A DNA stretch of 64,000 bases. Origin: an uncultured Anaerolineales bacterium. GTDB lineage: Bacteria; Chloroflexota; Anaerolineae; UBA7937; B3-Chlor. The stretch's first letter is position 1, and every line of letters begins with the position of its first letter. The notes under the pieces were generated by a model. That model was not told the DNA's origin. It was given only the letters and a program-made list of their open reading frames with translations, and ran no database searches. This document shows, piece by piece, positions 2,846-21,504 of the stretch. Made by a program: the position numbers and the translations under genes. The DNA lies in the NCBI GenBank assembly GCA_964577995.1, contig CAZOBP010000002.1, positions 15,972-79,971 on the forward strand, written 5' to 3'.

Positions 2846-3991
2846 ATGGATTTCAATTTCACCCCCGAACAGGATCTTTTCCGTCAGAGTGTGCGGGAGT
2901 TCGCCGACAGACACGTGAGGCCTCGCATTAAGGAGATGGAGGAGAAGGAGGACGTTCCGCAAGACCTGATGCGCCAGATGGCCGAGCAAGGTTTCTACGG
3001 CATCCGCTACGCAGAGGAGTGGGGTGGTCAGGGCGGGGACAATGTGATGTTTGCCATCTTCAACGAAGAGATGGCTCGCTGCTATATGAGTGCGGCAGCC
3101 AGAGCGATGATGCAATGTCTGATGGGCACCGAATTCATCAACCTCTATGGAACGGAGGAGCAGAAAAACAACTTCCTGGTCCCGGCCATCCAGGGGGAGA
3201 TGTACGGCACCTTGGCCATCACTGAGCCGGCTGGCGGGACGGACCTCGGTGCTATGCAGACCACTGCGGTGCGGGATGGAGACGAGTACGTCATCAATGG
3301 TCATAAGAGCTGGATTACCGCCGCACATGTCGTCGACTTTCTCACGATAGCCGCCAAGACCGACCCTGAGGCAGGGTTCAGGGGTGTGGACATGTTTCTA
3401 TTGGAGAGGGACAGGCCAGGTGTGGTAATCGGGGACAAGATAGACAAGCTGATCGCCCGTGCTTCCGGGTGTTATGAGGTCTTTTTCAACGATGTCCGTA
3501 TCCCAGCGGATCGCCTGTTTGGTGGAGAGGAGGGCAAAGGGTTCGCGCTTCTCCGTGCCATCCTGAATGACATTCGCGTACATACGGCCGCTCTCGGGTT
3601 GGGGATAGCCCGGGCCGCGTACGAGGAGTCGCTGGAGTACGCCAAGCAACGCGTGGCCTATGGTCGCCCTATCATCAAGTGGCAAGCCATTCAGCACAAG
3701 CTAGCGAAGATGAGGGTGGACATCGACGCGGCCAAGCTGATGATCTACTACGCTGCTTGGCGTATGGATCAAGGTCTACCGGTGAACATTGAGGCCGCGA
3801 CCTGCAAGTACTTCATCACCGAGGCGGTGCTGAGGATCGTCGATGATGCCTCGCGCATCTTTGGCGGCTATGGGGCTTCCATGGACATGAACATTCAGAG
3901 GTATCTCCGGGATGCCCGCTGGCTCCTCTACGGCGGTGGCACTCAGACTATGATCCTCAACATCATTGCGGCTGAGATAGGTAGAGAGTAG
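2846..3991 (+). CDS. Acyl-CoA dehydrogenase
   Basis: 381-aa ORF preceded by GGAGGAAGG, with ITEPAGGTDLGA, YGRPIIKWQAIQHKLA and LYGGGTQTM. Confidence 0.9.
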   Translation: MDFNFTPEQDLFRQSVREFADRHVRPRIKEMEEKEDVPQDLMRQMAEQGFYGIRYAEEWGGQGGDNVMFAIFNEEMARCYMSAAARAMMQCLMGTEFINLYGTEEQKNNFLVPAIQGEMYGTLAITEPAGGTDLGAMQTTAVRDGDEYVINGHKSWITAAHVVDFLTIAAKTDPEAGFRGVDMFLLERDRPGVVIGDKIDKLIARASGCYEVFFNDVRIPADRLFGGEEGKGFALLRAILNDIRVHTAALGLGIARAAYEESLEYAKQRVAYGRPIIKWQAIQHKLAKMRVDIDAAKLMIYYAAWRMDQGLPVNIEAATCKYFITEAVLRIVDDASRIFGGYGASMDMNIQRYLRDARWLLYGGGTQTMILNIIAAEIGRE

Positions 3992-10944: not shown

Positions 10945-12146
10945 ATGACTCAGAGCAAGGTTCTCATAGTTGATGATGATAGGCTGACCCTGACCATAGT
11001 GGCAGATACGCTGCGAGAGGCTGGGTTGGTGGTGGAAACCGCGCAGAACGGTCAAGAAGCACTGCACAAGCTAGCGGATTCAACCCTGACCTGATCGTCC
11101 TGGACGTGGTCATGCCCGACTTGGACGGCTACGAGGTCGCTCGTCGGTTGCGACAGGATCCCGCTTGGGCGCTGATTCCCATCATCATGCTCACCACCAA
11201 GGGTGGTATCGCCGACAAGGTGACTGCTTTCCAGGCAGGGGCAGACGATTACCTGACCAAGCCTTTCGATCCGGTCGAACTCGAGGTGAGGGTCAAGGCG
11301 CATCTGGCAAGGACCCGAGCAGCGCTGGGTGTACAGCGCACCAAGCCCAGAGGCAAGGTCATCACGCTATTCAGCCTGCGAGGCGGAGCGGGCGTGACGT
11401 CCCTGGCGGTCAATCTCGCCGCAGCACTAGCTCAATTGTGGCAGGTGGAGGTACCTCTGCTCGATCTGGCTCTGGAATCCGGTCATGCAGCCCTGATGCT
11501 TGACGTGAGGCCCAAATACACGCTGGCAGAACTGGCGCGGAAGTCGCTGGCCGATGTCGAGTTTGGCCTCTTGGCTGGCTATCTGGCGGACCACGAGTCC
11601 GGAGTGAGAGTCCTGGCGGCGCCCAGAAGTGCGGAAGAGGCTGGCCTGGTGACGCCATCCCTGGTGGACAAGATCCTTTCCCTACTCAGGGAGCGGTTCG
11701 AGTACCTGGTCATAGATACTCCGTCGGCCTTCACCGAAGTCACTCTGGCGACGCTCGATGCTTCCGATCTGATCATCCTGGTGGTCACGCCGGAGATCGC
11801 GGGAGTGAAGGTGATGGTGAACACACTAGATATCTTCGCGTCACTGGGCTACCCCGAGGAGCGGCTACTGGCGGTCGTCAACCACAACCTGCCAAAGGGA
11901 GCACTACCCACGGAGAACATTCAGGCTTCTCTGCGTATACCAGTGATGGACGGTGTGCCGTATGACAGCGGGGCGTTCGTGCAAGGCATTAACAAAGGTG
12001 TGCCCTTCGTGTTGAGCGGGACTTCGAGCGACGCAGCCAGGGTGGTAGCGCGCCTGGCGTACCAAGTGAGCAAGCCGGAGATGCAGCAGAGCAGGCCCGA
12101 ATCGCCCTCACCTTTGCTGCAGAGCGTCCGGCGGACTCTGAAGTGA
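10945..12146 (+). pseudogene. TadZ/CpaE-like protein (receiver domain + ParA/MinD-type ATPase) with a 1-nt frameshift inside the receiver domain
   Basis: ATG 10945 gives MTQSKVLIVDDD...EALHKLADS and then stops at 11092. The frame of ORF 11106..12146 already reads NPDLIVLDVVMPDLDG from 11082. The C-terminal part has FSLRGGAGVTSLAVNLA (deviant Walker A) and LVIDTP. Confidence 0.75.
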
Positions 12147-12156
12147 GGCAAGAAGG

Positions 12157-13383
12157 ATGAACTGTCCAGAATGCGGGGAAGAACTTGTGGGCAATGAGGC
12201 GGTATGTCCTCATTGTCTGACCCGATTGGCTGTCCTGGAGCAGCAAGGGGAAGCCAACTCGGTTGTGTCGGAAAGTCCCGTGGGTCCGGTGCTGCTGCGA
12301 CCGCTGGGCAAGCGGTTCTCCGCACCTTCTGTCCCAAAGCGCAGGTTGGTGATAGGTGCACTGATACCAGTCGCCCTGATCGTGGTTGCCTCGCTGTGGG
12401 TGACCAGAGCGCAGCGCGACGCGGCGTACTACTTCAATGAGGCCGAGAGGCTCTATGAGGGACGGCAATACGAATCTGCGCTTGTATCCTATCGCAGGGT
12501 GACGGACTTGGAGCCTGAACTTGGTGTGGTCTACGCTCGAATGGGATGGTGCTACTACCACCTGGCGCGCGACGAGGAGTCGGTTCCGCAGTTCCGGAGG
12601 GCCATCGAGCTCGAGCCAGAATTGGCGGAAGCGCACGCGGGCTTGGGTCAGGCCTACTACTACCTGAGGGAGTATCCAGAGGCGGAGAGTGCTCTACGGG
12701 GGGCCATCGAACTGGACAATCGAAGGGCGGAAAGCTATGGCTATCTCGGCTCTGCTCTCTTCTGGCAGGACAGGTATGAAGAGGCGATACAGCCGTTGAC
12801 GGAGGCTACTCGCCTCGATCCATTCGATGCTGACTCTCATGAGTTCCTTGGGCGCTCCTACTTCCTGCTGGGCAGGTACAACGACGCACTGAGCCCTCTG
12901 AGCACGGCCATTGGACTCGATGCTGATGACGTTGACGTGACGCGAGCTCTGGCACAAACCTACTACGAGTTGGGACGGTACGAGCAGGCCGGCCCCTACT
13001 TCTTGGATTTGCTAGCCTACGAACCAGACGACCCAGAGCTCTATCTACTGCTAGGTCGCTCCTTGTACGAGGATGGAGACTATGGTCAGGCCATCGCCCA
13101 GTTGAACGTAGCTCTGGACAAACTGAGCGTGGGCCTCGTGGCGCCAGCAAGCTACCGTTATCTGGGCTGGTCCTATTATGAACTCGAGCGGTACCAAGAG
13201 GCGATCTATCTCTTTGAGCGGTCGCTGATCTTCGAAGCGGAACAGGCGGACACCTACAGTGGCCTCGGCTGGTGCTATCAACGTCTGGACAGATGCGAGG
13301 AGGCAGTGCCCATGTTCGAGCGGGCACTGGAGCTGGATCACACCCTACAGACAGCTAGAGGAGGTCTCGATGCGTGCCGGTAG
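12157..13383 (+). CDS. Zinc-ribbon / single-TM / TPR-repeat protein
   Basis: N-terminal CPECG...CPHC, one hydrophobic helix (LVIGALIPVALIVVASLWV), then about 8 TPR-like repeats (A..Y...G.Y.EA...). Confidence 0.8.
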   Translation: MNCPECGEELVGNEAVCPHCLTRLAVLEQQGEANSVVSESPVGPVLLRPLGKRFSAPSVPKRRLVIGALIPVALIVVASLWVTRAQRDAAYYFNEAERLYEGRQYESALVSYRRVTDLEPELGVVYARMGWCYYHLARDEESVPQFRRAIELEPELAEAHAGLGQAYYYLREYPEAESALRGAIELDNRRAESYGYLGSALFWQDRYEEAIQPLTEATRLDPFDADSHEFLGRSYFLLGRYNDALSPLSTAIGLDADDVDVTRALAQTYYELGRYEQAGPYFLDLLAYEPDDPELYLLLGRSLYEDGDYGQAIAQLNVALDKLSVGLVAPASYRYLGWSYYELERYQEAIYLFERSLIFEAEQADTYSGLGWCYQRLDRCEEAVPMFERALELDHTLQTARGGLDACR

Positions 13384-14035
13384 GTTGTACTCAGTTGGTG
13401 CGTCAGGAAGTGAGGCGGAAACGGGGCAGGGCCTGGTCGAGTACGCGCTGATCGTGGCCCTGGTGGCCCTAGTCGTCAGCGCTGTGCTGATTGCCCTGGG
13501 ACCAGCGATTGGCGACGCCTTCAGAGCTGTCCAGGACAGGATGCGCGAGCTTGGTGCCGGTGCAGCGACTCCCGTCGCCACCAGCGAGCCAGGTGTTACA
13601 GTTACCCCAGGTCCTGCTGAGGTCGTCATCGACCCCTCCTGTTCCTGCTTTGACTGCAAGGGTTCATCGAAGGGAAAGCCCTCTGAACGCACCCCCGAGG
13701 AGGAGCATATATGCTTCACCAACCGAGAAGCATACGCGGTGGACATGACAGGGTGGACGGTGACGGATGCGGTGAATCACCGCTACACCTTCCCGCGTTT
13801 CCACCTCCAGGCGGGGGCGAGTGTCAAGCTGTATAGTGACAGGGGCGCCGATACGGAGACCGATCTCTACTGGGGAACGGAAGGCAACATCTGGAACGAC
13901 AAGGGCGACACTGCATACCTACGTAATGCAACCGGCGTCCTGGTTGACGAGTACTCGTATGGACGCATGGTACCTCCAGCTGCGACGTTGGTGCCTGATC
14001 CGAGCCCGCCGCCGGTGAGTCCTGTGCTGCCCTAG
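13370..14035 (+). CDS. Flp-type prepilin-like N-terminus fused to a lamin-tail-domain (LTD)-like C-terminus
   Basis: ATG 13370 follows AGAGGAGG. The leader MRAGRLYSVGASGSEAETG precedes QGLVEYALIVALVALVV (a G-x4-EY class III signal), then ...LGPAIGDAFRAV. After a linker comes AVDMTGWTVTD..YTFP..L.AG..V.LYS...IWNDKGDTAYL, which is LTD-like. Confidence 0.6.
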   Translation: MRAGRLYSVGASGSEAETGQGLVEYALIVALVALVVSAVLIALGPAIGDAFRAVQDRMRELGAGAATPVATSEPGVTVTPGPAEVVIDPSCSCFDCKGSSKGKPSERTPEEEHICFTNREAYAVDMTGWTVTDAVNHRYTFPRFHLQAGASVKLYSDRGADTETDLYWGTEGNIWNDKGDTAYLRNATGVLVDEYSYGRMVPPAATLVPDPSPPPVSPVLP

Positions 14036-14211
14036 CTAGGGGTGATGGTGGTCAAAAGGTGCACGCTGAAGAAGACTGTGGCAATCTATTGGCGGTTGTG
14101 CAGGAAAGCGGGGGGCAGGCAGCCCGACCGCGCTTGGATACCGTGACAAACTCGATCTCCGTGCGTAGAGAAGTGGCAATTCCGGAAGCAGGCGCCCTTG
14201 AATCGGCCGGC

Positions 14212-14985
14212 ATGCGCGCTGCCCGGGTGGCAGATTGCACCGGTGGCATGGAGACCGGTCAGTCATTGGTCGAGTATTGCCTGTTATTGCTTCTGGTAGC
14301 GATCATCGTGCTGGGGGGCGTGTGGCTGGTAGGAATGCGGGTGTCGAGAGCGTACGGGAGAGTGACCACGAACATCGGCGAGTCCGAGGAGGTGCCCACG
14401 CCCGTGCCCACAGCCACGCCCGAGGAGGGTAGTTCATCCTGGCAGGAGTGGCAAGAAGCGGCTGGCAGCGGGTGGCGTGCGGAGACGACGCGGTACTGTG
14501 TGGATCAGCAGGGTGAGCACAGATCGTTCTACGGCGCTGAGAACTGGACGGACTACATCATTCGAGTGAAGGCCAATCTCTATCAAGGGGAGGGCTATGG
14601 CGTGTTCTTCAGGGCCGTCGATGTGAGTCACGTCAGCGGCTATGTGTTCCAGTATGAGCCTACCTGTAGGTATCTGGGCCGAGAAGGATGTTTCAGTCTC
14701 CGAAAGGTTGTCGGCGGCCGTGTTGAGTACCCGTTCGCCCGAAGCAGCGTGCCGTCTGACTACGAATGGTACAACGCTCCAAGAGACATCGAAGTGCAAG
14801 TGGAGGGTAGCTCTTTCAGAGCCTTCATCGACGGCGAGGAGGTATTGATGGGGACGGATGGTGAGTACACCCACGGTCAGGTGGGTCTACGCACCTGGGA
14901 CGCATCGGAAGTCTGCTTCTGGGAGTTCACGATCACTTTCCTCGAGCAGCCGGATCGGGATCGTGACGATCGGGATGGACAGTAG
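14212..14985 (+). CDS. Flp-type prepilin-like N-terminus fused to a ConA-like/DUF1080-like beta-sandwich domain
   Basis: MRAARVADCTGGMETG precedes QSLVEYCLLLLLVAIIVL (G-x4-EY). After a P/T/E linker come WTDYIIRVKA, GYGVFFRA, GYVFQY and GQVGLRTW, as in 3-keto-disaccharide-hydrolase/LamG-like domains. The start could be ATG 14248. Confidence 0.55.
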   Translation: MRAARVADCTGGMETGQSLVEYCLLLLLVAIIVLGGVWLVGMRVSRAYGRVTTNIGESEEVPTPVPTATPEEGSSSWQEWQEAAGSGWRAETTRYCVDQQGEHRSFYGAENWTDYIIRVKANLYQGEGYGVFFRAVDVSHVSGYVFQYEPTCRYLGREGCFSLRKVVGGRVEYPFARSSVPSDYEWYNAPRDIEVQVEGSSFRAFIDGEEVLMGTDGEYTHGQVGLRTWDASEVCFWEFTITFLEQPDRDRDDRDGQ

Positions 14986-15080: not shown

Positions 15081-15470
15081 ATGGCTGGTGATGAGATGGA
15101 CGTAGCGAAATACAAGGACTTGTATCTCACCGAGGCTTACGCACAGGTCGCTGTGATGGAAGAGGGGGTTGCGGCGCTTGGGGACTCTCCGGCAGACTCT
15201 GAACTCCTGTCGAGCATCAGTCGCGCTGCCCACACGTTGAAGGGTATGTCTGCGACGATGGGGTATGAGAAACTGGCTCGGCTAGCCGGCGGAGTGGAGA
15301 GACTGATGGACTCGAACACACTCCGGAGCGTAGCCGGTACGTCTGAGCTCGGTGATCTGCTGACTGACTGCATCGAAACACTTCGCCTACTCTTAGGGCA
15401 GGTTGTCGACGGGAGCGCCTGCGAAGTCGAGTTGGACGCCTTACTGCGGCGGATGGAGCTTCTTGCCTAG
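15081..15470 (+). CDS. Stand-alone Hpt (histidine phosphotransfer) domain protein
   Basis: AAHTLKGMSATMGYEKLARLA is the HxLKG Hpt signature. The size is about 125 aa. Confidence 0.75.
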   Translation: MAGDEMDVAKYKDLYLTEAYAQVAVMEEGVAALGDSPADSELLSSISRAAHTLKGMSATMGYEKLARLAGGVERLMDSNTLRSVAGTSELGDLLTDCIETLRLLLGQVVDGSACEVELDALLRRMELLA

Positions 15471-15528
15471 CAAGAACGACTATGCTGATCTGCTTCGAGT
15501 CACCAGTCGAACAGGAGGGAGGGGGAGC

Positions 15529-15909
15529 GTGGTAAGAATACTGTTGGTCGAGGACGAGGCAAGCCTTCGGCGCTTGATCGAGTATGCACTTCAAACCAGG
15601 GGGTATGAAGTGGTCGTGGCTGCCGACGGGCGCCAGGGACTGGACAAGGCACGATCTGAATCGCCGGATCTCATTCTCCTCGACATGGTCATGCCGGAAA
15701 TGGGCGGAATGGAGGTCCTCAGCGCGTTGAAGAAGGATGCGCGTTTGAAGGACATTCCGGTGCTGATTGTGACTGCCAGTGCGCAGAAAGGGGATGCGGA
15801 GAAGGCCATGGGTATGGGCGCGGCAGGCTATCTGACCAAGCCTTTCCACGTGCCCACTCTGTACGACAGAGTTGAAGAACTCCTGTCCGGTGTAGCCGAG
15901 AAAGGTTAG
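15529..15909 (+). CDS. Single-domain CheY-like response regulator
   Basis: GTG 15529 follows GGAGGGAGGGGGAG, with ILLVEDE, LILLDMVMPEMGG and YLTKPF. Confidence 0.9.
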   Translation: MVRILLVEDEASLRRLIEYALQTRGYEVVVAADGRQGLDKARSESPDLILLDMVMPEMGGMEVLSALKKDARLKDIPVLIVTASAQKGDAEKAMGMGAAGYLTKPFHVPTLYDRVEELLSGVAEKG

Positions 15910-15924
15910 AGGGGATGAGAGTAG

Positions 15925-16320
15925 ATGGGCAGAATCCTTGTGGTGGATGATTCTCCATTCATGGTGCGCCTCGTAACGTACATGCTGGAGTCCGCAGGCC
16001 ATGAGACGGCGAGCGCTGAGAACGGGAAAGTCGCGCTTGGCCTTATGGCCGAGGAGGTCCCGGACCTGGTGTTCCTTGACAGCATGATGCCCGAGATGGA
16101 CGGTTTGGAGACGCTGCGCGCAATCAGAGCGAACCCCAACACCATGGACGTGCCGGTCCTCATGCTGACGGCCAAGGCCCAGGACGACGACTACCTGGCT
16201 GCCAGGGAGGCGGGCGCCAATGGGTACCTGACCAAGCCGTTCAACCGGGCTGACGTGTTGGACAGCGTGGCTCGGTGCCTGGGTCCCGGATCTGAAGGAG
16301 CGGACGAGGAAGATGAGTGA
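15925..16320 (+). CDS. Single-domain CheY-like response regulator
   Basis: ILVVDDSP, VFLDSMMPEMDG and YLTKPF. The stop overlaps the start of the next gene. Confidence 0.9.
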   Translation: MGRILVVDDSPFMVRLVTYMLESAGHETASAENGKVALGLMAEEVPDLVFLDSMMPEMDGLETLRAIRANPNTMDVPVLMLTAKAQDDDYLAAREAGANGYLTKPFNRADVLDSVARCLGPGSEGADEEDE

Positions 16321-17146
16321 GAGTCCCGGTGCCAGAGAGGAAGTAGTCCGGCTGAAGTGGTACGTCGTGGCTGCCACCGTCGCTCTCATTACCCTCTTGG
16401 AGGTGTTCTATCTGACGGTGGTGGAAGTGCCACCGGTGGAGTGTCTGATCCAGTGGATAGTGGTTACGGGTTTGGCCCTGGCACTCATCCACTTCACGTT
16501 CACGATGGCGCTCAGGGAGCATGACCGCGTCGAACAACAGGCGCGGCAACTAGCAAGGCCGCTTGCGGAGGGCGAGAAAGACCGGGATGCCATCAGACGC
16601 CTGGCGTATCACGACGAACTGACCGGTTTGCCCAACCGTGCGCTGTTCTAAGATCGACTGGAGGTGGCGACATCTCGTGCGCGACGCAACGGTTCCAAGC
16701 TTGTGGTGATGTTGATGGACTTGGATCGGTTCAAGGAGATCAACGACACACTTGGGCATGCGGCGGGGGATCGCTTGCTACAGAGGGTTGGGGAGCGGCT
16801 GACGGCCACTGTGCGGAAGAGCGATACCGTATGTCGGATGGGTGGCGATGAGTTCCTCTTGCTCTTCCCTGACCCGGACCGCTCGGAGGAGGCGGACGTA
16901 ATCGCCGATAAGGTTCTGACAGCGATCAGGGACCCTATTGGTGTGGGTGATCTGCAACTACAGATCACCACCAGCCTTGGCGCAGCGCTGTACCCAGATC
17001 ATGGCATAGATTGTGATACTCTCATTAGCAGCGCTGACATCGCCATGTACCATGTCAAGGATAATGGGCGAGACGGCTATCAGTGGCATGCTCCAACGCA
17101 GAAGAGGGGGCAGCTTCCTGGTCCGGATCTCGCGGCCGGGAGGTGA
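16313..17146 (+). pseudogene. Membrane-anchored GGDEF diguanylate cyclase interrupted by one in-frame TAA (16649-16651)
   Basis: ORFs 16313..16651 and 16664..17146 share a frame. The read is ...DELTGLPNRALF*DRLEVA...LMDLDRFKEINDTLGHAAGD...RKSDTVCRMGGDEFLL. Two N-terminal TM helices are present, and the GGDEF and RxxD I-site motifs are intact. Confidence 0.75.
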
Positions 17147-17151
17147 GAGCT

Positions 17152-20100
17152 GTGACAGACGAGCGCATGACCAGGGAGCAGTTGATGGGCGAGGTGCTCG
17201 AGCTACGGCACAAAGTCGCCGAACTGGAGTCATTGGAGCAGGGGGGGAGGAGGGCCGAGGAGGAGGCCCGCAAGGAGCGGGACAAGACCCAGAAATACCT
17301 CGACGTCGCAGGGGTGATCTTCGTGGTCATCGGCGTAAACGAAGAGGTGGAGCTTGTCAACAAGCAGGGCTGTGAGGTTCTGGGGTACGACGAGCATGAG
17401 ATCGTCGGCCGGAACTGGTTCGAGACGTTTCTCCCGGCCCGAGTCAGGGATGACGTGCGGGCGGTTTTCACCTCACTGATGAACGGCGCTCTCGAGCCGG
17501 CCGAACGTTATGAGAATCCCATCCTGGCCAAGGCCGGGGAGGAGCGCACCATCGTCTGGCACAATACTGTTCTCACGGACGAAACAGGTGTCATTGTCGG
17601 GGCTATCTCGTCAGGGCAGGACATTACTGAGCGCAGGCAGGCGGAAAAGGCCTTACGAGAGAGTGAGAGGAGCTTCAGGGCACTGGCCGACAATGCCAGT
17701 GATGGTATTCTCATCGGGACGAGTAGTGGTCTACACATATACGCCAATCGACGGGCAGCAGAGATCACAGGCTACGAAGCGGATGAGTTGGTGGATATGG
17801 GGATTCGAGATCTCGTCCATCCCGATGAGCTGTCGACGGTTCTCGAGACCTACAGGAAGCGATTGGAGGGCCAATCGGCTCCGCGCCACTACGAGACGCG
17901 CTTTGTGCGGAACGACGGGACGACGGTGGCGGTGGAGTTGGCGGGTGCGAAGACCGTCTGGCAGGGACTGCCCGCCGACCTAGTTCTCTTTCGCGACATA
18001 GCCGAGCGCAAGCAGGCCGAGACCGAACTCAGAGATTCCGAGGAGCGACTCAGAACACTGTTCGAGTCCGCGCCCGTGGCCTACTACCTGAATGATCTGC
18101 GAGGGACATTCCTCGACGGCAATAGAGCTGCGGAGCAACTGTTCGGCTACGCACGGGAGGAGTTGGTCGGAAGCAGCCTCCTGGAGCTGAGACTGCTCTC
18201 CGCAGACCAGCTTCCTCGCTCCTCTGCTCTCCTGGCCAGAAGTGCTATGGGTGACGCTACCGGCCCCGATGAGTTCGTGCTGAACCGCAGAGACGGCACG
18301 GAGGTCGCCATGGAGATAAGCACATACCCGGTCAAGTTGAAGGGCGACTCTGTGATCCTCGGTATTGCCAGGGACATCACCCAGAGTAAAGATGCTGAAG
18401 AGGCGCTGAGGGAGAACGAACAGCGCTATCGCGGGTTGTTCGAGAACTCTCCCATCGCCCTCTGGGAGGAGGATGCCTCGGAAGTCAAGAGATACATAGA
18501 TGAACTGCGTGCCTCGGGTGTCAAGGACTACAGGAGCTACTTTGGCAGTCACCCAGGGGCCGTTCGCGAGTGCACGGGATTGGTCAGAATACTCGACGTG
18601 AATCAGGCTACCCTGGACTTGTACGGGGCAGAGAGTAAGGAGGAACTGCTGGCAGGTCTGGACCAGGTACTCGCCGAAGGCTCGTATGACATCTTCAAGG
18701 AGGAAGTGCTTGCCATCGCCGAAGGCAGAACCCAATTCGATGCTGAGACGAGAGCGCGAACTCTCTCGGGCGAGGCCCGGGATATTGCCTTGAGATGGAC
18801 GGTGGCCCCTGGCTGCGAGGAGACCTTCTCGAGCGTGTTGGTCTCAGACATAGATGTCACTGAGCGCACAAGGGCGGAAAGGGAGATCAGGCATCGCACG
18901 AGCCAGTTGACTCTTGTCAACAAAGTGGGGCAAAGGCTGGCTCCCATCCTGGAGTCTGTCCAGCTCTACACGATGGTGGTCCAGGCTGTCCAGGAGGAGT
19001 TCGGCTACCAGATGGTCGGCTTCTTCTTGGTGAGAGGCGACGAGTTGGTCGTGGAGGCGGCGGCTGGACCCTTTAAGGAATCCATCCCGGTGGGGCACAG
19101 TCAGAAGATAGGCGAAGGCACCCTGGGCTGGGTGGCCGAGCACGGAAAGCCGTTGCTGGTCAACGATGCAAGCGAGGAATCTCGCTTCTTGGAGGTGGAG
19201 ACACTAGACATCGCAGCCGAGCTGGACGTGCCCGTGACTGTCGCTGGTCAGACGATAGGCGTGATAGCGGTCGCGAGTGACTCTGCCAACGTCTTTTCCG
19301 AGACGGACGTCACGGCCATGGAGGCGATAGCCGGTCAGGTTGCCCGCGCCATCGAGAACTCCCGGCTGTACGAGCAGGAGCGGCGTCGCGGGATTCAGAG
19401 AGAGACGATCGCCGAAGTGGGGCGGGCGATCGCCGCTATTCTGGACATGGACACTCTGCTCTCACGGGTTGTGGAACTGGTGGCACAGAACTTCGGATAC
19501 TATGCAGTGAATGTGTTCGAGGTCGATGCAGCGTCTGAATACGCTGCCTTCAGAGCCTCAACGGTGGAATCCGAGGGCAGCGGGCGGGAAGGTCTCCGGC
19601 TCAGAGTAGGTGAGGAGGGGATTGTGGGATGGGTAGCCGGCAGTGGGCAACCGCTGATGGTCGATGACGTCAGTCGCGAGCCCCGTTTCCGATTCGACCC
19701 GGCGGTTGCTGACACACGTTCAGAGGTGGCGGTACCCATCAGGCTTGGAGACAAGGTCGTCGGCGTGTTGGACGTGCTCAGTGATGAGGTAGATGCCTTC
19801 GACGAGAGCGTTTTGGGGACCCTGGAAACTCTGGCGCACTCACTGGCCGTGGCCATGGAGAACGCCCGCCTGTATGAGGAGGAGAGGAGACGATCTGAGG
19901 AACTATCGGCGCTCCTGGATACGGCGCAAGCCCTGGCCTCGTCGCTGGACTTGGAGGAGGTTTTGGAGATCGTAGCGCGCCAGGTGAAGGCACTGACCCA
20001 AGCGGACGGTGGTCGTATCTACTTGTTGGAGCCCGATGGGCAGACGCTACGGCCCCTTGTGGCGCTGGGGGTGGAGGCGGAAGAGATGATGGCCTTCTCC

Positions 20101-21504
20101 TTTGGCATTGGGCAGGGCATTACTGGCCAAGTGGCTGCCACAGGGAATGCAGAGGTGGTGAATGATGTCCATAGGGATCCGAGAGGCTTGCACATCCCCG
20201 GGACCACACAAGAACCGATGTCTATGCTGTGTGTGCCACTTGCCATCAAGGGGGATGTGGCAGGAGTGATGGCAGTGTCTAGGTTCGGAGAGCGGCCCTT
20301 CGATGACCAGGATCTCCAGTTGGCGATCAGCATGGCGAGCCATGCGGCGACCGCCATCGAGAACTCCCGGCTCTATCAATCGGTTGCTGACAGAGAGACC
20401 AAACTCCGGGACCAGATCGAATCTGCCGCCGATGCCATCTTCAATCTGGATCCCCAGGGGAGGTTAACGCTCTTCAACGGGGAGGCGGAGAGGCTCTCTG
20501 GCTTCAGGCGCGATGAGGTATTGGGATACCACTACACTCAGATGCTGTGGCCGGAGCAGACCGAGCAGATGCGCAGTCTGCTGTCGCCCGATGTCGGTGG
20601 GGAAGTATTACAGCAAGCCTATGAGATCGATTTCCTCGACAAGTGGGGACAGCGGGTTCCTATGGAGATCCGCGTCAGCGCTCTCGAGCGTGCAGGACGT
20701 CTGGAGGGCTGGCAAGTCATCGGTCGGGATGTCAGCGAGCGACGGCGTCTTGAGGAGATGAAGAGCCAGTTCCTGGCTACCGTGTCGCATGATTTGAGAA
20801 CGCCCTTGGCATCAATCATGGGTTTCACCGAGATGCTTGTGGAGGGAAGCCCCGGTCCCTTGACAGAGATACAGGATGAGTTCCTCGGGATAGTCTTCGA
20901 GAACTCCCAGCGCCTGATGGCTCTGGTCAACGATCTCCTGGACATCTCCAAGTTGGAGGTTGGGCGGACCAGCCTGGTGGTGAAGACCATAGAGTTGCCG
21001 CGCCTGATCGCTGGTGTGATTGACGAGATGAGCCCGCTGACCTACAGGAAGAACATCTCGCTCGAGGTAGACTGTGCAGAGACGCTGCCCCCGACACAAG
21101 GCGATCAAAGGCGACTGGAGCAGGTCCTCAACAACCTGCTTTCCAACGCAGTGAAGTTCACGCCTGAGGGAGGAAGGGTGGAAGTCAAGGCGGAGCTGGA
21201 AGGGGAGCAGTTGGTGGTCACCGTGAGAGACACGGGTCTCGGCATACCTCCGGACGATCTGCCCCATCTGTTTCAGCCGTTTCACCGAGGTGGGAATGTG
21301 ACCGAGCAGGCTATCGAGGGGACGGGTCTGGGCCTGAGCATTGCCAAGGCTTTGGTCGAGGCGCACGGTGGCGACATGGGAGTGGAGAGCGAGTTGGGCA
21401 AAGGTAGCACGTTCTGGTTCACGTTACCTGTCAAGGAACCTGCGCTGTCTGAGCCAGTCCAGACCGATGGAGGACCGGATCTGGGATCGTTGCCACGTGG
21501 TTGA
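17152..21504 (+). CDS. Large multi-PAS/multi-GAF sensor histidine kinase
   Basis: Coiled-coil N-terminus, repeated PAS blocks, three GAF-like blocks, H-box SHDLRTPL and HATPase boxes [27 protein letters not shown] 17152 follows GGGAGGTGAGAG. There is no receiver domain. Confidence 0.9.

Follow-up and report, generated by a model that had tools for sequence, protein, structure and literature searches.

The locus and its features

In a 64,000-nucleotide (nt) stretch of contig CAZOBP010000002.1 from an uncultured Anaerolineales bacterium of the phylum Chloroflexota (the window), two adjacent genes on the + strand, here called A and B, encode proteins with Flp-type pilin N-termini fused to globular domains. 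The original prediction had pointed to this pair, and the two open reading frames (ORFs), their positions and their fusion architecture were all confirmed. Each protein consists of a prepilin leader, a complete Flp core with a helix of ~30-40 residues, a flexible linker and a folded module, and this arrangement is conserved. The features of the two genes are as follows; homologous loci are designated below by L numbers and individual proteins by P numbers.

13370..14035, + strand: gene A, Flp-type prepilin fused to a lamin-tail domain, 221 amino acids (aa); ORF with GGAGG ribosome-binding site, matches to Pfam LTD and Flp_Fap, homologues
13370..13426, + strand: A leader, 19 aa, ending in ETG; prepilin-peptidase cleavage predicted after G19
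13427..13552, + strand: A Flp core, mature residues 1-42, QGLVEY, hydrophobic helix and LGPAIGDAF; identity to Flp pilins, profile match, AlphaFold helix at 17-61
13553..13621, + strand: A linker, 23 residues, Ala/Pro/Thr-rich, GAGAATPVATSEPGVTVTPGPAE; predicted local distance difference test (pLDDT) <50 at residues 57-81
13622..13963, + strand: A Cys cluster (SCSCFDC...C) and lamin-tail Ig-like domain; Pfam LTD, invariant Cys, Foldseek
13964..14035, + strand: A Pro-rich C-terminal tail and stop codon; P-x-P-x-P-P-x-V-x-P partly conserved
14212..14985, + strand: gene B, Flp-type prepilin fused to a beta-sandwich of CBM66/DUF1080 type, 257 aa; ORF from ATG 14212, homologues
14212..14259, + strand: B leader, 16 aa, ending in ETG; cleavage predicted after G16
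14260..14352, + strand: B Flp core, QSLVEY and hydrophobic helix; family profile against 8U1K, AlphaFold helix at 18-47
14353..14427, + strand: B linker, Pro/Thr/Glu-rich, YGRVTTNIGESEEVPTPVPTATPEE; pLDDT <50 at residues 48-72, weakest constraint
14428..14940, + strand: B beta-sandwich of CBM66/DUF1080 type with invariant C96 and C235; pLDDT >90, Foldseek, profile, PF06439
14941..14985, + strand: B charged C-terminal tail LEQPDRDRDDRDGQ and stop codon; RDRDDRD tail conserved to ~45% identity

The start of gene A overlaps the 3' end of the preceding tetratricopeptide repeat (TPR) gene by 14 nt and has a GGAGG ribosome-binding site 6 nt on its 5' side. Gene callers place the start of B at GTG 14059; because the extra stretch that this adds is not conserved in the alignment of relatives, most of which begin 15-20 residues ahead of the conserved motif, ATG 14212 is the likely start. 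The A leader, MRAGRLYSVGASGSEAETG, is followed by the mature start QGLVEYALIVALVALVVSAVLIALGPAIGDAF (longer mature stretch, QGLVEYALIVALVALVVSAVLIALGPAIGDAFRAVQ), and the B leader, MRAARVADCTGGMETG, by the mature start QSLVEYCLLLLLVAIIVLGGVWLVGMRVSRAY (longer mature stretch, QSLVEYCLLLLLVAIIVLGGVWLVGMRVSRAYGRV). Predicted mature lengths are 202 aa for A and 241 aa for B, each with a folded C-terminal domain. The motif originally described for the pair, a leader of 16-19 aa ending in ETG and then Q(G/S)LVEY and a hydrophobic helix, is present in both proteins; the LG said to follow the helix is VG in B. A promoter and terminator scan around the two genes gave signals no better than those in shuffled sequence.

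Flp identity of the N-termini

The whole 64 kb was scanned in six frames for a prepilin-like pattern, G-x3-[VILMAT]-E-[aromatic or aliphatic] with 12 or more hydrophobic residues after it, and exactly two sites fitted it, the junctions of A and B. Both proteins also have the short polar leader, G/XXXXEY and hydrophobic stretch by which Flp/Fap pilins are recognized (ETG/QGLVEY in A and ETG/QSLVEY in B; here and below, a slash following the glycine marks the predicted cut). Within the A family the junction G, Q, V, E and Y are invariant and the leader varies around an invariant G19; in the B family these junction residues are nearly invariant, and the alignment shows an unconserved region in front of a conserved G-Q-S-L-V-E-Y. 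AlphaFold models place a helix at residues 17-61 of A and 18-47 of B (pLDDT ~90).

Profile comparisons of the families were consistent with these motifs. The Pfam model Flp_Fap was matched by 16/16 relatives of A, with a best E-value of 7e-8, and by 5/27 relatives of B (E<=0.01), and several relatives of both proteins carry a precomputed PF04964 assignment. When family profiles were compared with 177,635 PDB sequences, that of B found two solved Tad pilins, Caulobacter PilA 8U1K at E 3.8e-4 and 8U2B at E 9e-4, and that of A found the same two structures at E 1.7e-3 and 2.2e-3. The profile alignments span residues 3-41 of the 45-residue mature Tad pilins with E5-Y6 in register; in that of B, positions 14-51 pair with residues 3-40 of 8U1K. 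Neither TadE (PF07811) nor Tad (PF13400) was matched by any of the 43 members of the two families (E<=0.01), whereas the true TadE and TadG genes of locus L029, used as positive controls, scored 2e-17 and 9e-12. The Pfam scan likewise gave no match to the N_methyl signal (IPR012902) in A, B or their families, and an NCBIfam scan of A and B yielded nothing useful.

The core of A is 64-67% identical to canonical Chloroflexota Flp pilins of 48-50 aa (P0066-P0068). A word-indexed homologue search with the 62-aa N-terminus of A returned only 3 matches, and an exhaustive phmmer search of 1.84 billion representatives with the same query gave 1246 hits at E<=1e-3, the best 150 of which were mostly short, Flp-sized proteins. 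Short Flp genes of this kind, found in many Chloroflexota, encode E-x-G/GQGLVEYALILVLVAIVVIAxLxxLGPxIGNVFSxI, nearly identical to the A core. At L029 one such gene is followed by TadE and TadG-like genes, and the A-core-like subtype is thus a Tad pilin. Among the loci with short flp genes that we checked (L023, L029, L035 and L037), TadE together with TadG was obtained only at L029. ORFs near the tandem genes of L023, L035 and L037 that had been taken for tadA, tadB or tadC proved to be amidohydrolase, GGDEF, arginase and RadA-like genes. Taken at the level of the families, these comparisons argue strongly that the N-termini of A and B are of Flp type. In length the two proteins depart from canonical Flp pilins, which have ~40-60 mature residues and no C-terminal domain.

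The C-terminal domains

The C-terminal part of A matched Pfam LTD (PF00932) with 70 bits against a cut-off of 34.3 over residues 107-198, and all 16 of the 16 relatives of A matched it too. In Foldseek the best matches were lamin Ig-folds, among them lamin B1 (3JT0, E 6e-5, template modelling (TM) score 0.6) and lamin A/C, found with a low-confidence model. Just before the LTD lie four invariant cysteines, C91, C93, C96 and C115 (SCSCFDC...C, window 13637-13714), which may form disulfides or a metal site. The module of A is a Cys-knotted lamin-tail Ig-like domain, as the original prediction of a lamin-tail-like domain had held.

B on its own scored 22.1 bits with DUF1080/3keto-disac_hyd (PF06439), below the cut-off of 26.8, and 26/27 of its relatives matched this family. 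Its AlphaFold model is good, with a pLDDT of 81 overall and >90 for the beta-sandwich at residues 81-243; the stretch 48-72 is disordered. The best Foldseek matches were the CBM66 structures 4B1M and 4AZZ (E 3e-10, TM 0.82-0.84, root-mean-square deviation (rmsd) 2.2 Å), and the family profile of B likewise found the levanase CBM66 in the PDB at E 5e-10. Enzymatic DUF1080 structures sit lower in the Foldseek list; the hydratase 8V31 gave TM 0.45 and rmsd 9.7 Å. The domain of ~165 residues has the size of CBM66, and the GH16 motif E-x-D-x(1,2)-E was not found in B. By sequence profile and predicted model, then, the module of B looks like the non-catalytic CBM66 rather than an enzyme. Of the ConA/DUF1080-like domain claimed at first, the beta-sandwich stood, with a CBM66 fold, and the window sequence itself fell short of the PF06439 cut-off. 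Of the suggestion of binding or enzymatic domains, the binding alternative is favoured for B by this CBM66-type fold and the enzymatic one disfavoured. The check by structure prediction that had been proposed gave support to both C-terminal folds, and at family level all the proposed computational checks favoured the original prediction. The charged tail of B, PDRDRDDRDGQ, may serve in binding to the wall or to a partner.

Conservation and selection

Homologues of A form 19 clusters, all of ~221-229 aa, and those of B form 34 clusters reaching 32% identity. The ratio omega of nonsynonymous (dN) to synonymous (dS) divergence, computed against orthologues at 79% and 59% amino-acid identity for A and at 73% and 57% for B, was 0.12 for A and 0.165 for B, with an overall range of 0.12-0.17. 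The lowest dN values were those of the Flp cores (A, dN 0.056 against dS 1.3; B, dN 0.067 against dS 1.1), and the least constrained region was the linker of B (dN 0.41, dS 0.64); the linkers of both proteins are disordered in the AlphaFold models. A and B are real, intact genes under purifying selection, which is strongest on the Flp core.

Neighbouring genes

The genes around A and B follow the order excisionase-type helix-turn-helix, receiver-ATPase, TPR gene, A, B, Hpt, two receivers, GGDEF and histidine kinase. The rows for the neighbours are as follows.

10945..12146, + strand: receiver and TadZ/CpaE-like ParA/MinD ATPase, broken by a 1-nt deletion near 11066-11078; Response_reg and ParA/AAA_31
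12157..13383, + strand: protein of 408 aa with Zn-ribbon, one transmembrane helix and TPR; TPR families, Zn_Ribbon_1
15081..21504, + strand: signalling block of Hpt, two receiver proteins, GGDEF and a 1473-aa PAS/GAF histidine kinase; Pfam domains

The ATPase has the Walker-A-like sequence SLRGGAGVTS, and an invariant FSLRGGxG[VT][TS][ST], which fits the Walker-A-like consensus of TadZ, K/RGGXGXS/T (bioRxiv 10.64898/2026.07.08.737194). Its best solved relative was 3EA0 (E 3e-24), with the motif KGGDGGS; MinD matches carry GKGGxGKT, and BcsQ, which has a similar motif, reached only E 0.3. The receiver is canonical with a complete phospho-acceptor set (DD, D54, T84 and K106), in contrast to the 'atypical' receiver of classical TadZ. 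Assignment of this ATPase to TadZ is probable on these motif and profile comparisons. In the window the receiver domain is split by the 1-nt deletion: frame 0 ends at a stop codon after EALHKLADSTLT and the other frame goes on as GFNPDLIVLDVVMPDLDG. Because an independent metagenome assembly from JGI (L058) has the very same deletion, it is probably real and not an assembly error. Intact orthologues of 400 aa are found in L001 and L006.

Orthologous contigs at 57-80% identity (L001, which is 1.1 Mb long, L006, L007 and L058) preserve the order of the cassette, and L001 and L006 also share the order of the downstream signalling genes. The TPR gene always lies between the TadZ-like gene and A, a position kept in L001, L004, L006, L058 and L059. 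In L004, from a distant Chloroflexota metagenome-assembled genome (MAG), the ATPase and TPR genes are followed by a different Flp fusion (EVG/QGLVEV..., a Pro/Thr linker and a domain without Pfam match), a Flp-DUF1080 gene and then a Che operon. In L011 and L014 the receiver-ATPase gene is immediately 5' of the Flp-DUF1080 gene, and in L014 a hybrid kinase gene is on the 3' side. A receiver-TadZ-like gene thus stands directly 5' in four divergent lineages (that of the window, L004, L011 and L014), a link to Tad that goes beyond what the original prediction contained.

Elsewhere in the window a truncated acyl-CoA dehydrogenase copy (1654-2319, N-terminal and middle domains, 221 aa) lies just 5' of a full-length 381-aa copy (2846-3991); it could be what is left of a gene or reflect a further frameshift.

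Distribution of Flp fusions and related proteins

A scan of GTDB species genomes yielded 48 loci, nearly all of them in Chloroflexota (Anaerolineae, Chloroflexia, Ktedonobacterales, Caldilineae and Ardenticatenaceae), and these hold four kinds of protein: canonical Flp, mid-length Flp, Flp-DUF1080 fusions and N-methyl-type DUF1080 pilins. The canonical class has 39-44 mature residues and often occurs in tandem. The mid class (L024-L027, L031, L033, L034, L042, L043, L045, L051 and L052) has 86-140 mature residues, with 60-100 extra ones after the canonical GQGLVEY core; these are Cys- and Thr/Val-rich with VTVTVT-type strands, beta-rich, and gave one weak Pfam match (Big_7). In the Flp-DUF1080 fusions, which have 215-233 residues, no long linker separates the helix from the sandwich after it. 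The fourth kind, with an N-methyl-type junction (G/FTL[IV]E) and the same C-terminal DUF1080/CBM66-like module, was found at L016 (9554-10444, an Erysipelotrichaceae MAG) and L019 (9476-10450, a Syntrophaceae MAG), and both of these module carriers matched the N_methyl model. Judged by sequence, the DUF1080 graft sits on a different pilin class in two other phyla. Ca. Chloroploca asiatica has three tandem Flp-like fusions.

The length of sequence past the core was also counted in the 144 best single-match representatives of the A core. More than 50 residues followed the core in 24 of these (17%), more than 100 in 7 and more than 150 in 2, one of which is the query. From these counts, extended Flp proteins are not rare in Chloroflexota, and large fusions with recognisable domains are rare. 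In the databases most relatives bear the automatic JGI name 'Flp pilus assembly pilin Flp', and NCBI names P0047 and P0054 'family 16 glycoside hydrolase'.

Three further observations concern proteins of this kind. Five distant Chloroflexota loci (L003, 8606-9064; L011, 4660-5088; L012, 893-1321; L013, 10697-11131; L018, 6863-7303) have, directly 3' of the Flp-DUF1080 gene, a conserved gene whose ~145-aa product begins with a short cytoplasmic stretch and continues into a single transmembrane helix and a beta domain (CarboxypepD_reg by its annotation in L003); it is absent from the lineage of the window. Separate Flp-like stretches recur in two database proteins, 11 times in P0071 (1237 aa) and 4 times in P0070 (418 aa); either tandem flp genes have been joined in the gene calls or these are true poly-Flp proteins. 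The best GTDB match to B, at L010 (9977-10681) on a 'Chromatiaceae' MAG contig, is a DUF1080 protein with another pilin-like N-terminus, QSG/AETLEFLVVVFLLAIAV; mis-binning of the contig could account for this, as could a further pilin subtype that also carries the module.

A proposed role for A and B and its alternatives

We think it rather likely that A and B belong to the Flp/Tad (type IVc) class as modular pilins, and bacteria with these genes probably hang binding modules on their pilus subunits. We propose that an aspartic prepilin peptidase of TadV type, with its gene elsewhere in the genome, would cut after the ETG glycine, and that the helix would keep A and B in the membrane with the module outside until the Tad machine co-polymerises it with ordinary 40-aa Flp subunits. 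The linker would then project the module outward, with A or B most likely a subunit of low abundance or one at the tip. In Tad pilins the filament surface is formed by the C-terminal end (PMC10710030). From their folds, B may bind carbohydrate in a lectin-like adhesive role and A some ligand, by which the pilus would gain adhesive specificity. Such adhesive subunits make biological sense, since the three Chloroflexales genomes that have been examined contain only Tad pili, which have been proposed as a gliding motor (PMC7332563). The receiver-TadZ-like and TPR genes upstream and the kinase, Hpt and Che genes downstream suggest in addition that deployment of A and B could be signal-controlled, acting through the phosphorylatable receiver-TadZ-like ATPase, the TPR protein and the products of the downstream genes.

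Several results weigh against A and B being pilus subunits. By itself A scored 23.7 bits with Flp_Fap (PF04964; E 4e-5), below the gathering cut-off of 32.2, and B had no Flp_Fap match in the Pfam scan, so that the Flp_Fap profile check proposed with the original prediction held for the families and fell short for the two window proteins. The AlphaFold model of A is poor overall, with a pLDDT of 56. TadA, TadB/C, TadV and short flp genes were not found in the 64-kb window or beside the homologues examined (L003, L004 and L011-L018); the case for Tad dependence therefore rests on sequence similarity and the TadZ-like neighbour. The structure of E. rectale TadZ was not among the PDB matches of that neighbour at E<=1, unlike MinD and 3EA0, and in this population the TadZ-like gene is frameshifted. 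The GGDEF gene (16313-17146) is broken as well, by an in-frame TAA at 16649-16651; it is also split or shortened in L001 (13192-13724) and L006 (12179-12593), and thus seems to have decayed repeatedly where A and B have remained intact. What stays constant beside A and B is a set of signalling genes, and these fit a sensor as well as an adhesin. Finally, all solved Tad pili are, to our knowledge, bare helices, and we know of no experimental demonstration that such a filament tolerates an appendage of 17-19 kDa.

Another possibility is that the Flp-type signal serves for export and anchoring only. Once cleaved, A and B would remain membrane-bound, or build a short pseudopilus that holds the lectin and Ig modules in the wall zone, much as archaeal sugar-binding proteins with class III signals are displayed. 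They would sense ligands for the neighbouring kinase, Hpt and Che proteins, as receptors or co-sensors, and would not enter long pili at all. We regard this anchored role as somewhat unlikely, though it has several points in its favour: the conserved neighbours (Hpt, receivers, GGDEF and kinase, with Che in L004 and a hybrid kinase in L014) are for signalling and not for a pilus machine, the upstream ATPase carries a canonical phosphorylatable receiver, and the PilA that resides in the Caulobacter membrane is known to have a signalling function (PMC7196804). Against it, the most constrained region of the proteins is the complete Flp core, including an LGPxIGxxF part that mere anchoring would not need; the same module rides on N-methyl-type pilins, which are filament subunits; and a TadZ-type ATPase is a pilus-assembly factor. 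The present data fit both the anchored receptor and the pilus subunit and cannot separate them. If the N-termini were instead uncleaved signal-anchor helices of type II membrane proteins, with tethered ectodomains and a likeness to Flp that is compositional, the low Flp_Fap score of the window A and the missing match of B would follow easily; short hydrophobic queries, moreover, yield weak E-values. A signal anchor, however, does not need a variable leader that gives way to an invariant G-Q-G/S-L-V-E-Y exactly where the helix begins. Identity of 64-67% to bona fide Flp pilins of 48-50 aa extends over the whole mature pilin in the case of A, and out of 177,635 PDB sequences the family profiles specifically picked out solved Tad pilins. 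We consider signal-anchor helices very unlikely.

It is still less probable, indeed highly improbable, that A and B are pseudopilins (minor pilins) of the TadE/TadF/TadG type. Size alone would allow it, both proteins being larger than Flp, and there is a precedent in the TadG-like CpaL of Caulobacter, which joins pilin-like and vWA domains at the tip (PMC13170226). Yet the cores match Flp, 8U1K and 8U2B, and with 0/43 members matching TadE or Tad against working L029 controls we rejected this identity; the finding that the original prediction had named as its refutation, a better score as TadE/TadG pseudopilins, came out negative. An enzymatic role for B, secreted or anchored, as a 3-keto-glycoside hydrolase, lyase, hydratase or 'family 16 glycoside hydrolase', is suggested by the enzyme family after which PF06439 is named, by the NCBI names of P0047 and P0054, and by the enzymatic DUF1080 structures that appear lower in the Foldseek list. 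We find it quite unlikely, and disfavoured the GH16 or enzymatic reading, as CBM66 fits far better: the best profile and fold matches are non-catalytic (E 5e-10; TM 0.82-0.84) against TM 0.45 for 8V31, the domain is CBM66-sized, and the GH16 motif is absent from B.

Going further than modular pilins, one may speculate that there is a Chloroflexota branch of Tad in which Flp pilins with head domains are picked, under signal control, by a dedicated phosphorylatable TadZ paralogue. In the resulting 'lectin pilus' or pseudopilus, recognition of glycans or surfaces would be coupled to chemosensory or two-component control of gliding and aggregation, and the pilins would be the major subunits of a new filament type rather than occasional decorations. 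This we hold to be unlikely. In distant relatives the lectin-like head is joined straight to the helix without a linker, as in archaeal pilins.

Comparison with known systems

If A and B are true pilus subunits, the strategy of grafting modules onto pilins reaches the most widespread pilus class. They would then provide a concrete handle on adhesion, aggregation and gliding in Chloroflexota, and would pose the structural question of how a bare-helix filament houses an appendage of 17-19 kDa. From their conserved pairing with kinase or Che genes and with a TadZ-like ATPase that can be phosphorylated, a way in which signals might set the composition of the pilus suggests itself and can be tested. 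Proteins of this type are at present mis-named ('family 16 glycoside hydrolase') or unnamed, and full-text literature searches for Flp-LTD, Flp-DUF1080 or Flp-CBM66 fusions found no description.

The Tad/Flp pilin is the textbook example of a pilin cut down to a single helix. With the canonical Flp/PilA pilins (Caulobacter PilA 8U1K, and 8U2B), A and B share the cleavage motif, Glu5-Tyr6, the length of the helix and its LG-x-x-[IV]-x-x-x-F end; they differ in carrying 160-210 further residues that include a folded domain. Tad major pilins have been described as being without any C-terminal domain (PMC10710030). CpaL/TadG (PMC13170226) resembles A and B in being a Tad subunit whose pilin-like part bears an adhesive domain (vWA), and the tip has been proposed as its location; it belongs, however, to the TadE/G-like families, whereas A and B have the major-pilin (Flp) core, different modules and no TadE/Tad match.

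A more distant parallel is found in the archaeal sugar-binding proteins with class III signals (the Sulfolobus 'bindosome'), in which a pilin-type signal presents solute- or sugar-binding domains at the cell surface. Unlike A and B, these are archaeal ABC-transporter binding proteins processed by PibD, and their signal is not of Flp type. For the module of B, the closest match in both sequence and fold is the non-catalytic CBM66 of the B. subtilis levanase SacC (4AZZ, 4B1M), a domain that binds the terminal fructose of levan (PMC12678895); identity to it is only 18-19%, and CBM66 is attached to a GH32 enzyme whereas the B module is attached to a pilin.

The nearest architectural precedents are the modular pilins described among N-methyl-type pilins, including S. 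sanguinis PilB with a vWA domain and PilC with a ConA-like lectin domain (PMC8179133, PMC9934059). The survey of these proteins searched IPR012902 only (PMC8179133, PMC9934059). As in A and B, the pilin module stands at the N-terminus, and a short linker connects it to a domain with no specific tie to pilus biology; a lectin-type beta-sandwich is among the known grafts. The DUF1080-carrying N-methyl-type pilins of L016 and L019 follow this published design with the same module as B. In contrast, modular type IV pilins have the IPR012902/N-methyl signal and a globular pilin domain of their own, whereas the carrier in A and B is a bare Flp helix of type IVc. Modular pilins are so far known for the N-methyl type only, and a Flp core as the carrier of grafted modules would be a variant of that design.

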